A DNA stretch of 38,471 nucleotides from a virus. The notes under the pieces were generated by a model. It had not been told where the DNA came from, did no database searches, and saw nothing but the letters and a program-made list of their open reading frames with translations. Positions 2,044 through 4,160 of this stretch are shown in pieces (the first letter of the stretch is position 1; each line of letters opens with the position of its first letter). The stretch is taken from UHGV virus genome UHGV-0091782; one strand, given 5' to 3'. Made by a program: the position numbers and the translations under genes.

Positions 2044-2120
2044 GCTTTTGGCACATAGCAGCCCTAGAGACAGTGGCGTAAAGTCATGGAGAATCGGTGG
2101 GAGGATATTCAGTTTCATTC
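2044..2120 (+). other. Degenerate tRNA-Pro-like module, copy A (more decayed copy of the 4034-4120 element)
   Basis: Shares the 20-nt block gcttttggcacatagcagcc (2044-2063 versus 4034-4053) and a decayed ...gtcatgga-gaatcgg-tgggagga-tattca tail resembling the tRNA-Pro anticodon and T-arm. Confidence 0.3.
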
Positions 2121-2159
2121 ATGCCGAAATACGGTAAAATCTATAACAGATAGAAATCA

Positions 2160-2231
2160 TTCAATATTCGCACTATTGGAAGTTCACCAGCCAGCCACAG
2201 CACGTTCTTGCATACAACGTGCCTGCGGTTT
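2160..2231 (+). repeat. 72-bp direct repeat, copy A (85 percent identical to 4628-4699), ends in hairpin plus T-run
   Basis: ttcaatattcgcactattggaagttcaccagccagccacagcacgttcttgcatacaacgtgcctgcggttt aligned base by base with copy B: 61 of 72 identical. Confidence 0.6.
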
Positions 2232-2756
2232 TTGAGACCGTCCTGATCTACATATAACTCATAAACTTACCTCTAAAATCGAGAAAATTGTTTATTGTTT
2301 GTACTCAGTTTTTTCAGCGCGTTACGTTAATCATCTATGTCATTTTCTCATCATTTCTTTAAAGTATTGAGATAAGACTAGATAACTTTCCTGATGTGAA
2401 TGGATGTCAGATCACCGGACTATTATCATCAATGAGCCTTCTGAATATGGCGAAGGCTAAAAGTCCGCTGTGAGCGAGGAGCGGACATTGCTAACAGCAT
2501 TATTTGTAAAGCGACGAAAAACAGGTCAATATTGCTTCTGAGGACGATAAGCACTAAATTCTTAATTGAATAAAAACTGGTTAAAGAACCTATGGGCTGA
2601 TTAAATTCCTAGTGACAAGAGTTAAGCCATAGCAAATGATGCTATACATAATTATTGCTCCTGCTTGCAAAAGGGAGTAATTTCAAACCTCCCTAACAAT
2701 AATTAAATAGCATCAGAAACGCTTTGCTGGGCCTGGTTATGTCTTCATATTGAAGT

Positions 2757-3740
2757 TCATTTTTGTTTTAGCTTGATAATTTCCGATATTATGTTTGTTA
2801 GCTTTGAATCTGAAAGATTCTGCAGTCTATCTTTCTCAATAGAAACTGTAGTCTGTCCCTTTTCTAATATGAAATTTCTTTCTGTCTTCATCAAGTGCAT
2901 AGCCAACTCTTTTATCATATCTTCGCTCTTGAACTCTTGAACATATTTTAATGACATAACTTTCATCTCAATATTTGTAATTTCATTTTGAAAATATTTA
3001 ATCTCGTCAAACCCATTTTTATAGAGACGCAGAAAGAAATAAGCAAACAGCTCAACAACAATTACAAATGACAATTTAGGAAGGTGATGAATAAAAAAGT
3101 CCAAACCATCTACTATGGCTGGAGCGCTGTAAAGAAAATAAGCAAGGAATAATATCCCTGTTAACGCAATTGTAGTTCCGATTGCAAGGTTAACCCCACC
3201 TCGTCGATTGAGCCTGTCAATTTCGGACTCTAATCTTAGAACCATATCAGTATGGAGTTTGTGTAAGCTATAGCTTTTCTTAAAATTTGATATATCGGTC
3301 TTTAGGCTACTATCTGCCAAGAGTATTGTGTTTCCAATTATTCTTTTTTTTGCATCGGATATTAATTTATTTCTTTCGCTTTCCGTTAATTCAACTGAAA
3401 CCCCAGAAGACGACTTTTCTTCAACCTCAGTCAACCTTCTATGTAATCTCAATATCTCCTTGTGAAGAATATGGCTCGTTCTTTCAATACTTCTACCGCC
3501 AATCCCTTTATTTAGATAAGAGGTCATCGCAGTAAAAAAAATGCCAAGGAATGTCGCAAAAACTGACAAGTATAAAAAGAACCTCTTTTTCTCGCTTATA
3601 ACTTCTAATAGTGCTAATGATGAAGCTTGAACATTTGAAAACAAAAACAAAAGCACTAAAAAAATGGCTATAAACATTGTTGCTATAGTAATAAAATGTT
3701 TTCCTGAAAGATAAATTATAAAATCAATAATATTTTTCAT
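2757..3740 (-). CDS. AT-rich membrane protein (327 aa): predicted 4 TM helices, two on each side of a charged coiled-coil segment; candidate superinfection-exclusion or abortive-infection effector
   Basis: ORF track; hydrophobic stretches near residues 15-35, 54-75, 183-205 and 222-240; G+C visibly far below the phage core; bracketed by the 72-bp repeats and tRNA-Pro-like modules. Confidence 0.55.
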   Translation of the reverse strand: MKNIIDFIIYLSGKHFITIATMFIAIFLVLLFLFSNVQASSLALLEVISEKKRFFLYLSVFATFLGIFFTAMTSYLNKGIGGRSIERTSHILHKEILRLHRRLTEVEEKSSSGVSVELTESERNKLISDAKKRIIGNTILLADSSLKTDISNFKKSYSLHKLHTDMVLRLESEIDRLNRRGGVNLAIGTTIALTGILFLAYFLYSAPAIVDGLDFFIHHLPKLSFVIVVELFAYFFLRLYKNGFDEIKYFQNEITNIEMKVMSLKYVQEFKSEDMIKELAMHLMKTERNFILEKGQTTVSIEKDRLQNLSDSKLTNIISEIIKLKQK

Positions 3741-4038
3741 TTTATTTTCATCCCGAAGTGATTTTGGGTAAAATAATTGAAAAGATGATAAATTGCAAGA
3801 TTCACATTACTATTTAATTTAAAATGACTATACTTCTCCGTACATTGATATCCAATCTTAGACGGGAAAAACTTCTTAGTCAGCTAAAGCCAATGCTACC
3901 CTTTCTATCGAATCCCCCTCTGATCTAACATATACAAGCGTCAACCCATCGGCAGTGATAATTCTATGAGGATGCCTAAAAACAAGCCCCTGAGGTGCTC
4001 CCCGCTCATTAAGACAATACATCTTGCAACTCTGCTTT

Positions 4039-4120
4039 TGGCACATAGCAGCCTTCATGGCAGTAGCACTCCGTCATGGGGTGTCGGGGGTCGGAGGTTC
4101 AAATCCTCTCGTGCCGACCA
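4039..4120 (+). tRNA. tRNA-Pro(GGG)-like sequence: 3' 50 nt (4071-4120) canonical and ending CCA, 5' half divergent with a disrupted D-arm; probably a pseudo-tRNA or att fossil rather than a functional gene
   Basis: ccgtcatggggtgtcgggggtcggaggttcaaatcctctcgtgccgacca matches my recollection of E. coli proL from the anticodon arm to CCA; upstream part tggcacatagcagccttcatggcagtagcact is only partly tRNA-like (acceptor 6 of 7 pairs, D-stem does not fold). Confidence 0.35.
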
Positions 4121-4130
4121 AAAACCCCTT

Positions 4131-4160
4131 AAAAACCAGCCTATTATGGCTGGTTTTTTT
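4131..4160 (+). terminator. Rho-independent terminator (stem ccagcc/ggctgg, 6-nt loop, 7-T run; A-run upstream makes it potentially bidirectional)
   Basis: aaaaaccagcctattatggctggttttttt directly after the tRNA-Pro-like CCA end. Confidence 0.6.

Follow-up and report, generated by a model that had tools for sequence, protein, structure and literature searches.

A probable orphan proL attachment-site module and its older allele in a prophage integrated at thrW

The window analysed in this study is the whole 38,471-nt stretch of the virus genome UHGV-0091782, and it contains two degenerate sequences that resemble tRNA-Pro, designated copy A and copy B. Copy B with the DNA that follows it (approximately 4027-4620) is probably an orphan attachment-site module of temperate phages that integrate at proL, and copy A is probably an older allele of the same locus. 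Four observations are firmly established: the sequence identities, the live proL lysogens, the absence of a proL-type integrase from the window and the tRNA features that are missing from copy B. The original prediction had interpreted both stretches as tRNA-Pro attachment-site remnants which mark the exchange of phage modules. Our results agree with that interpretation on the basis of 103 proL lysogens, a host prophage that uses thrW and the varied left flanks described below.

The proL core and the degenerate 5' part of copy B

A proL attachment site would be recognized by a block of identity that starts in the anticodon arm and reaches the 3' end of the gene, by an arm that is joined to the genuine target in lysogens, by another arm that lies beside the displaced 3' half at the far prophage end, and by a cognate integrase in the same element. 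The block of identity is present at 4071-4120 (+ strand), the common core of the site. These positions match the last 50 nt of K-12 proL, the gene of tRNA-Pro(GGG), at 50 of 50 positions from the anticodon stem to CCA, as originally predicted. The identical run is exactly 50 nt long, with the first base of the anticodon stem as its limit.

The degenerate 5' part of copy B occupies the 32 nt in front of the core (4039-4070, + strand) and has 59% identity to the 5' part of proL. An acceptor-like strand, TGGCACA, is present in these 32 nt, and indels break the D arm. In the alignment to proL, two of the four D-stem pairs are formed, the D loop is 7 nt too long, and the acceptor stem contains U1-G72 and an A7xC66 mismatch. 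These values bear out the earlier description of approximately 30 nt that are only partly tRNA-like and have an unfolded D arm. The alignment to proL had also been proposed as a check, with a lack of similarity to tRNA-Pro as the result that would count against the prediction; the similarity is clear. The middle of copy B (4052-4070) aligns like neither copy A nor proL. The tRNA ancestry of the "tRNA-like" 5' end is uncertain, because part of this end overlaps a motif that also occurs away from tRNA-like sequence (motif M, below).

Assessment of copy B as a tRNA gene

A bona fide tRNA-Pro gene would be detected by a dedicated tRNA finder, score at or above the threshold of a covariance model and keep an intact cloverleaf (4-bp D stem, 7-bp acceptor stem) by compensatory change. 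Copy B lacks the last two of these properties, and ARAGORN and the NCBI annotation disagree on the first. ARAGORN identified 0 tRNA genes in the whole window, and Rfam at the gathering threshold identified nothing in it. The Rfam tRNA model RF00005 gave copy B 15.8 bits against a gathering cut-off of 29, in a 5'-truncated match that covers model positions 11-71 only. Across 12 pseudo-tRNA variants the cloverleaf cells paired in 70.3% of cases, compared with 69.7% in shuffles; no covariation was found among these variants, and most departures were unpaired cells. Since ARAGORN found none, the Rfam score is below its cut-off and pairing is no better than in shuffles, copy B is not considered a tRNA gene. 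Judged from the sequences, neither pseudo-tRNA copy is a working tRNA. Thus, the proposed ARAGORN check returned no tRNA, and the covariance model did not score 4039-4120 as bona fide; a bona fide score had been named as evidence against the original prediction. The alternative offered at that time, a phage-borne pseudo-tRNA, describes the sequence fairly, provided that no functional RNA gene is meant.

In the NCBI/RefSeq annotation of the identical chromosome NZ_CP031215.1, 4039-4120 is an 82-nt tRNA-Pro, which implies that the phage encodes a functional tRNA-Pro(GGG) whose D arm is unusual. Six of seven acceptor-stem pairs are possible in such an RNA, the anticodon arm, T arm and CCA are all intact, the minimum-energy fold is roughly cloverleaf-shaped, and a terminator follows directly. 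However, we regard a functional tRNA as very improbable. In addition to the ARAGORN, Rfam and D-arm results above, the fold does not exceed shuffles in stability (z=-1.55), the substitutions in relatives break pairs and are not compensatory, and the scan of the + strand upstream found no promoter-like site. Also, the base-for-base match to the host in the 3' half is a need of an attachment site and not a structural need.

Terminator and phage arm

The core is followed by the phage arm of the proL attachment site (4121-4620, + strand), which consists of the phage copy of the proL terminator and a DinI-like gene. The terminator scan identified a hairpin at 4131-4158 (+ strand) with the properties of an intrinsic terminator: 11 pairs (5 of them G-C), a 6-nt loop and a T run. 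The - strand was not flagged at these positions. Thus, of the "clean bidirectional terminator" described originally, the + strand terminator after the core was found and the second direction was not. The hairpin is homologous to the terminator of proL itself, with a compensatory change in the stem (AACCAACC/GGTTGGTT in K-12 and AACCAGCC/GGCTGGTT in the window), and it would be expected to terminate transcription still.

The DinI-like gene (4362-4579, + strand) is frameshifted according to the RefSeq annotation. Directly after the arm lies a 3' remnant of the pin invertase gene (4621-4863, - strand), identified by annotation and repeat comparison, which includes the second copy of a repeat, D2 (4621-4699, - strand), and a helix-turn-helix pseudogene (4699-4863, - strand). 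The proL module goes with the DinI-like gene and the 3' end of pin, and not with oac as had been suggested; in a BL21-derived strain, oac and the tail-fibre assembly gene occur alone, with no tRNA-like sequence.

proL lysogens in E. coli

The arm at 4121-4620 is joined to the genuine target in lysogens. Of 5,426 complete E. coli genomes, 103 have it directly after the genuine yejM-proL, with approximately 99.5% identity; the query was a chimera of K-12 yejM-proL and window 4121-4620, and its coverage in these genomes was 100%. Because 4121-4620 follows genuine proL in these genomes, copy B can be read as the core and one arm of a proL-type attP. Prophage integration at proL has been published, for example in the proL prophages of STEC O121:H19 (PMC8767318).

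The proL-adjacent prophages have their own integrase and carry the displaced proL 3' half at the far end. In APEC O78 (NC_020163.1), where the locus was inspected in full, the prophage spans proL to the integrase. Past the integrase, a second, hybrid "tRNA-Pro" adjoins yejO; it equals proL from CATGGGG onward and is annotated as a 78-nt tRNA-Pro. Two more such proL prophage ends have integrases that are 87-89% identical to the APEC O78 integrase.

In several independent lineages the proL 3' half is the same but the left flanks are unrelated, and the junctions all fall within approximately 8 nt at the anticodon stem/loop. The flanks are those of the window type, the SCU-123 type, two further types (L009 and L011) and three real prophage ends. 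The start-to-pin-motif spacing is shared by copy B and SCU-123 (582 nt), is nearly the same when counted from the genuine APEC O78 proL (577 nt) and is much shorter for copy A (114 nt). Homology of the window with proL and ssrA lysogens stops near 4709.

The second arm was not found in its expected place. The left part of the window type (TGGCACATAGCAGCC...) occurs at a real proL prophage end in 0 of 5,426 genomes, as does the SCU-123-type left part (0 of 5,426), and the real ends carry other left arms. Since the left part is never at a real proL prophage end, no living phage is shown with copy B as its complete attP. Among 50,697 phage records, the core-plus-terminator unit was found in 0 and only the DinI part was matched, so that a free-phage attP of this kind is unseen directly. 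A scan of one genome per species identified neither the pseudo-tRNA 5' pattern nor the core-plus-phage-terminator pattern. The pseudo-tRNA elements differ from one E. coli strain to another, and no representative genome has them fixed.

These left parts bear on a different route to copy B. It may be a hybrid of an old A-like relic, carried by a thrW phage, and the attL junction of a co-resident proL lysogen. Homologous recombination would have joined the two, and the 3' half of copy B would be very recent host or attL DNA. Identity to live junctions is approximately 99% over the 3' half and the arm as far as 4620 and falls past 4621, with window 4063-4709 only 96.75% identical to the APEC O78 locus (L017). 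The hybrid route would also fit the absence of the TGGCACATA-type left part from real proL prophage ends and the near-identity of copies A and B over their first 23 nt. However, 4052-4070 is unlike both parents, so a single crossover between A and attL is insufficient. In addition, a variant (L021) has the same left part with a different arm, which indicates that left part and core travel together. We therefore consider the hybrid unlikely. It differs from the orphan attachment-site module in the route of acquisition only, not in what the sequence is.

The resident prophage uses thrW

The attachment site in actual use is that of tRNA-Thr. The 3' 46 nt of thrW, from the anticodon loop to CCA, form the attR core at 533-578 (- strand), as identified by direct comparison with the full thrW at the other prophage end, and homology to attP of the SfII/SfV/P22 type covers 537-713. 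Comparison of the prophage ends places the 3' part of the complete thrW (attL) at 38436-38471 (- strand), and the window ends inside that gene. The only complete integrase in the window is the tyrosine integrase of the prophage itself (37303-38418/38421, + strand), a thrW-specific module unrelated to the proL-type integrase. A tblastn search of the window with the integrase of the APEC O78 proL prophage found nothing, and the element has no integrase cognate to copy B. Because the prophage lies in thrW with a thrW-specific integrase and lacks one of the proL type, the proL module is an orphan.

In the live form of the orphan module, a tyrosine integrase would recombine the phage-borne 3' half of proL with the chromosomal gene, with the crossover in or beside the anticodon stem-loop. 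The phage 3' half with its own terminator would complete the tRNA gene, and the host 3' half would be moved to the far prophage end. In the thrW prophage the module, having no cognate enzyme, would be unused, and it was probably gained by recombination with a proL-integrating relative. The near-identity to live sites suggests that it arrived recently. We infer both the position of the crossover and the order of these events.

Copy A and the associated repeats

By nhmmer and by comparison with proL, copy A (2037-2151, + strand) was identified as a pseudo-tRNA derived from proL that is old and decayed and has neither the terminator nor DinI. Positions 2041-2127 and 4031-4117 are 70% identical without gaps, and a 20-nt block occurs exactly twice in the window, at 2044-2063 and 4034-4053; this block had 0 matches in 100 shuffles even with 2 mismatches allowed. 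A profile built from independent relatives (nhmmer) matched 2039-2151 with E=2.6e-32 and 4031-4136 with E=6.5e-14. These results support the original report of a more decayed copy with the 20-nt block near 2044-2120. Copy A has 62% identity to the 3' part of proL, and its conservation in phage phi458 is 90%. The repeat extends further than had been noted: the first copy of D2, a remnant next to the pin 3' end (2153-2231, + strand), is 85% identical to 4621-4699, and both phi458 and E. coli genomes have a stretch homologous to 2153-2231 that continues into pin.

For 27 distinct A-type copies, sampled without bias from an anchor on the pin side, mean pairwise identity was 0.83 for the 5' part, 0.80 for the 3' part and 0.77 for the tail. 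The decay of copy A is uniform, with the 5' part, 3' part and tail equally diverged. An apparent extra conservation of the A-type 5' half was rejected as a search artefact, since it is gone in this sample. On the distances to the pin motif given above, copy A is an allele of the same locus from which the terminator and DinI are deleted, and not an independent second att site. A deletion of approximately 468 bp would have removed both, with even decay thereafter. A head-to-tail fusion of two att-proximal cargo slots, both of which end in such a relic and a pin remnant, would account for the tandem arrangement of the alleles.

A border motif and the cargo slots

The 20-nt block belongs to a 25-nt motif, M, with four copies in the window that form two inverted pairs, each around one cargo gene. 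Slot 1 has an inverted copy as its left border (838-862, - strand, 31.3 bits by PWM) and a direct copy as its right border (2037-2061, + strand, 34.0 bits), which holds most of the block at 2044-2063. Slot 2 likewise has an inverted left border (2465-2489, - strand, 30.4 bits) and a direct right border (4027-4051, + strand, 27.0 bits), which holds most of the block at 4034-4053. Loci identical to the window were left out of the training of the PWM, and the top score of 100 shuffles was 19.9 bits. Cargo gene 1 (1039-1971, - strand) is a HEPN domain protein in RefSeq and had no Pfam or PADLOC match; cargo gene 2 (2757-3740, - strand) is a predicted membrane protein. The M copy at 2465-2489 is, on the - strand, a terminator hairpin followed by TTTT at the 3' side of the membrane-protein gene, and UTI89 has a compensated hairpin at the matching position. 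The cassette at 2462-4045 is common to the window and the UTI89 prophage, with 74.5% DNA identity. The integrase beside the UTI89 cassette was considered as a relative of the proL-type, thrW-type or fragmentary integrases and was rejected; its sole similarity is to the integrase fragment at 50-388 and is weak, with 34% over 53 residues.

M overlaps the 5' end of both pseudo-tRNAs, and its inverted pairs occur in many SfII-like and lambda-like prophages. It is absent from K-12 e14, in which mcrA adjoins pinE, and from the APEC O78 proL prophage. Several descriptions of M were rejected. First, the left borders are not inverted copies of the whole pseudo-tRNA, since the similarity spans only approximately 30 nt. 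Secondly, a scan found no sigma-70 promoter consensus at the M positions. Lastly, the spacing and fit, judged by eye, are wrong for a sigma-54 site or an invertase crossover site.

The arrangement of the slots raises the question of whether the tRNA-like sequences persist as working sites, either as secondary attB landing pads for proL-targeting elements or through site-specific cassette exchange based on M. Copy B keeps the whole anticodon arm, which is the integrase target. In addition, 23 unrelated cargo contexts meet the pseudo-tRNA at one point, approximately -14; inverted M pairs flank single cargo genes in approximately 20 slots, two sequenced phages among them; and a given cargo end with its M is attached to different backbones, always with the junction directly behind ...GCTCAT. 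However, no recombinase is consistently found with the slots, the flanking integrase types differ, and pin is often a mere remnant. A search for empty slots, with M halves back to back, matched only unrelated terminators. Also, one M copy is simply a good terminator hairpin, phage Red/RecT-type recombination can likewise yield short conserved linkers, and the A-type relics decay at the same rate as the flanking non-coding DNA. Thus, persistence as working sites is doubtful. It is similarly doubtful that M is the site of a dedicated cassette-exchange system, perhaps derived from the tRNA attachment site, through which defence-type genes would enter a fixed slot beside att. The cargo genes of relatives have matches to PD-T4-3, a PD-T4-6-like kinase, PDC-S15 and OLD/AriA-like ATPases, all predicted defence functions.

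Implications

Two annotated "tRNA-Pro" genes, one of 82 nt in the RefSeq chromosome identical to the window and one of 78 nt at the prophage end in APEC O78, are attachment-site hybrids and not tRNA genes, and tRNA gene counts in prophage-rich genomes are inflated by such calls. As an orphan module and its older allele, the relics would trace and date the swapping of integration modules within a single phage family, from proL to thrW or ssrA: copy B is fresh and copy A is old. Because the relics and the live proL ends keep traces of a tRNA 5' part together with a phage terminator homologous to that of proL, their sequences suggest an origin of the attachment site in a whole tRNA gene that was captured. 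The relics also mark the border of a variable slot which contains recognised anti-phage genes in relatives, and this makes the slot easy to find elsewhere. The proL-relic scar itself is of an ordinary kind; the 25-nt inverted motif at the border of the cargo slot is unexpected.

Comparison with known systems

The literature recognizes an anticodon-loop class of tRNA integration sites. The attP/attL sites that contain the 3' part of a tRNA gene, as in P22 and the SfII/SfV/SfX group at thrW, have the same block of identity from the anticodon arm to the 3' end, the same supply of a replacement 3' half and terminator by the phage, and the same displaced host 3' half at the opposite prophage end; the window itself has such a pair at thrW. 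Unlike these sites, copy B lies away from the prophage ends, in an element that lacks a cognate integrase. It also adds a degenerate 5' part, and so looks like a full-length pseudo-tRNA.

The E. coli proL prophages (APEC O78, NC_020163.1; STEC O121:H19, PMC8767318) have a core, terminator and DinI-like arm approximately 99.5% identical to 4071-4620. However, in these prophages the module adjoins the genuine yejM-proL with the integrase at the other end, and the integrase-side arm has another degenerate 5' part (CGGCGCGG..., TGGCACGG...) and no M leader. In the tRNA-dependent lysogeny of mycobacteriophages, a complete and functional phage tRNA is needed because integration destroys the host gene (PMC10865867). 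In contrast, the classical arrangement described here restores the gene, and does so with a phage copy that is not itself a functional tRNA. The antiviral hotspots of P2-like phages and P4-like satellites (PMC9122126) likewise have very different cargo at a fixed place in the prophage. The slots in our analysis belong to SfII/SfV-like and lambda-like phages, lie adjacent to att and downstream of pin, and have a 25-nt inverted motif at their borders.

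Identity of the tRNA-Pro-like stretches

The last 50 nt of proL, the tRNA-Pro(GGG) gene of E. coli K-12, including CCA, are identical to 4071-4120 as originally stated, and the identity ends at exactly 50 nt. This sequence forms the core of copy B, a tRNA-Pro-like stretch at about 4027-4620. A hairpin with a T run lies 3' of the core on the plus strand (4131-4158); it accounts for the predicted terminator, and as the scan flagged nothing on the minus strand, the bidirectionality that had been ascribed to it is only partly borne out. A second, decayed stretch, copy A (2037-2151), does share the 20-nt block attributed to it: the block occurs exactly at 2044-2063 and 4034-4053, where none is expected by chance. 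The two copies are 70% identical over 87 aligned nt, and a profile built from relatives elsewhere matches both (E=2.6e-32 and E=6.5e-14).

Neither copy passes as a tRNA gene in the tests applied. ARAGORN, one of the checks that had been proposed, detected no tRNA at either copy, and the Rfam tRNA model gave only a truncated match, its 15.8 bits falling short of the threshold of 29. The D arm, which had been described as not folding, is broken by two length changes common to A-type and B-type copies (the relatives of copies A and B), one a loss of 2 nt and the other a gain of 7 nt. Fold stability was no greater than that of shuffled sequence, and the cloverleaf is not kept in 12 variants, with 70.3% of cells paired versus 69.7% in shuffles. 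RefSeq annotates a tRNA-Pro of 82 nt at 4039-4120 and one of 78 nt at the end of an APEC O78 prophage (36534-36611 of L017, NC_020163.1). Both are likely over-calls on attachment-site hybrids, a false positive recurring in many genomes.

Copy B as a relic of a proL attachment site

Many E. coli genomes contain the stretch that follows the CCA end of copy B on its right. A query joining K-12 yejM-proL, the genuine chromosomal gene, to 4121-4620 was searched in 5,426 complete E. coli genomes, and the junction was uninterrupted in 103 of them at approximately 99.5% identity. In APEC O78 a prophage starts directly after genuine proL, and its far end has a tyrosine integrase along with two small genes and a hybrid “tRNA-Pro” beside yejO, which is proL sequence from CATGGGG onward. 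A proL-type attachment site is thus represented by its common core (4071-4120) and its phage arm (4121-4620). Viral contigs provided two further proL-type prophage ends, with integrases 87-89% identical to that of APEC O78, and proL is a published prophage site (PMC8767318). In addition, the terminator of proL recurs in diverged form in the phage arm, with a compensatory change in the stem. The proL-type integrase has no homologue in the window, whose own integrase is unrelated to it.

The DinI-like gene of the arm (4362-4579; L015 2482-2688) carries a frameshift in the window as well as in the inspected lysogens SCU-123 and APEC O78, and it is intact in some ssrA-integrated relatives. Many lambdoid and Stx phages have a DinI homologue next to the integrase gene.

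In several lineages, unrelated left DNA meets the same 3' half and terminator, always at positions no more than about 8 nt apart in the anticodon stem/loop. The window type reads ...GCACT|CCGTCATGGGG, the SCU-123 type ...CTCG|CCATCATGGGG, a type in which a coding region ends ...CATAA|CCATCATGGGG, a further type ...GCAGAT|ATGGGG and three real prophage ends ...|CATGGGG. Several prophages with such joins are now integrated at ssrA, which indicates that integration modules were swapped and the old core was left behind.

The left part of copy B (TGGCACATAGCAGCC...) occurs at real proL prophage ends in 0 of the 5,426 genomes, and that of the SCU-123 type is likewise absent. At real ends the degenerate 5' part is of other types (e.g. 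TGGCACGGCTTTCGGCAGT... and CGGCGCGGCC...), which still include an acceptor-like 7-mer. The core-plus-terminator unit was in no phage record searched. For these reasons, copy B may be hybrid, an orphan left part joined to a live core and arm of recent acquisition, and not the complete attP of a living phage. The 3' half of B-type copies is 98-100% identical to proL and their 5' parts about 54-59%, a pattern that fits recent use or recent acquisition. Whether hybrid or complete attP, copy B is an attachment-site relic.

Copy A as a probable older allele

Measured from where the tRNA-like sequence starts, a conserved motif close to the 3' end of pin lies 582 nt away in copy B and SCU-123, 577 nt away at genuine proL in APEC O78 and 114 nt away in copy A. 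Copy A therefore lacks about 468 bp comprising the terminator and DinI. It appears to be an older allele of the same locus as copy B. To avoid bias toward the tRNA-like part, 134 loci were anchored on the pin-side motif. The position held DinI in 67, an A-type relic in 34 (27 distinct sequences), a thrW-type arm in 12, a bare 3'-half relic in three and other content in 18. Divergence among A-type copies is equal in the 5' part, 3' part and tail (mean pairwise identity 0.83, 0.80 and 0.77), and DNA further upstream is unrelated (0.29); the decay is uniform and neutral. An apparent special conservation of the A-type 5' half was rejected as an artefact of the search pattern. Two sequenced phages, phi458 and Lambda_2E9, carry the A-type relic.

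Prophage setting at thrW

The chromosome of E. coli Es_ST80_L1_NDM_10_2017 contains the window at 100% identity (record coordinate minus 2,311,220 gives the window coordinate). The SfII/SfV-like myovirus prophage is inserted at thrW, a tRNA-Thr gene beside proA; its integrase (37303-38421) lies at the right end of the window, whose edge falls within complete thrW. At the left end, a 46-nt thrW 3' fragment (533-578, minus strand) is followed by a P22/SfII-type attP arm, so that 579 to about 6,000 is the att-proximal cargo end. Its order is a gene labelled HEPN by RefSeq (1039-1971), copy A, a membrane-protein gene (2757-3740), copy B and terminator, the DinI-like pseudogene, a pin invertase remnant, an oac-like acyltransferase (5039-6064) and a tail-fibre assembly gene. 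Left of the thrW fragment lies an N-terminal integrase fragment (50-388, minus strand) and beyond it, outside the window, a vat autotransporter island and an IS1 remnant (L001 1-7000), which indicates a tandem array of integrated elements at thrW in this strain.

The displaced fragment differs from complete thrW (38436-38471, minus strand, continuing to 14732 in L016) by a compensatory T-stem pair, GGAGG/CCTCT versus GTAGG/CCTAT. It thus derives from a different functional thrW version, as expected with serial integrations there. By eye, a small hydrophobic ORF of about 36 aa (MKEKKTAAPFVVTFIFIGY..., 678-788, minus strand) lies in the conserved arm beside the thrW core; many lambda-like phages carry this stretch beside attP with about 90% conservation, and their annotations name it a hypothetical or membrane protein. 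In the gap between copy A and the start of the gene labelled HEPN is a near-perfect, operator-like palindrome, TTGTGTACCGTATATTACACAA (1995-2018).

The original prediction of fossil tRNA-Pro attachment-site modules and modular exchange is largely right; it is supported by the junction in 103 genomes and the lack of a proL-type integrase in the window. Both stretches are fossil proL modules in a prophage with changed integration specificity.

The tie to oac, which had been part of that prediction, is not supported. Homology with proL and ssrA lysogens stops near 4709, and ten close relatives that share this thrW locus carry different DNA after the terminator (an SOS-response peptidase and other genes). 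The acyltransferase/tail-fibre assembly module (4739-6516) is 97% identical in a BL21-derived strain (L034 6001-7762), where these two genes occur alone, within a cryptic prophage close to bioA-ybhB and away from any tRNA-like sequence. The two genes are a separate module.

Border motif and cargo slots

Scars of this kind are already familiar, so the proL relics themselves are of modest interest; what merits a separate look is the motif at the borders of the cargo slots, together with the slots themselves. The 20-nt block belongs to a motif, M, roughly 25 nt long (consensus AACGTCCGCTTCTGGCACATAGCAG). The motif can fold into a hairpin whose arms are GTCCGCT/AGCRGMC, with a 10-nt loop that is conserved. 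With window-identical sequences kept out of its training, a weight matrix located four sites and no others in the 38.5-kb window, scoring 27-34 bits (best of 100 shuffles, 19.9): 838-862 and 2465-2489 on the minus strand and 2037-2061 and 4027-4051 on the plus strand. They form two inverted pairs with one cargo gene inside each. One M copy is a plausible predicted terminator. M is separable from the tRNA-like part, and its acceptor-like TGGCACAT may or may not descend from the tRNA.

The search found no empty M site and no recombinase consistently co-occurring with the slots. Inverted M pairs surround cargo of 0.8-4.9 kb in about 20 other slots of related prophages; Lambda_2E9, which was outside the training set, has such a slot, and phi458 also has the arrangement. 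In 23 mutually unrelated cargo contexts the join to the pseudo-tRNA is the same, about 14 nt upstream, and one locus pair has the same cargo end and M on different backbones. Cargo in related slots includes matches to PD-T4-3, a PD-T4-6-like kinase, PDC-S15 and OLD/AriA-like ATPases, which is reminiscent of the antiviral hotspots in P2/P4 elements (PMC9122126).
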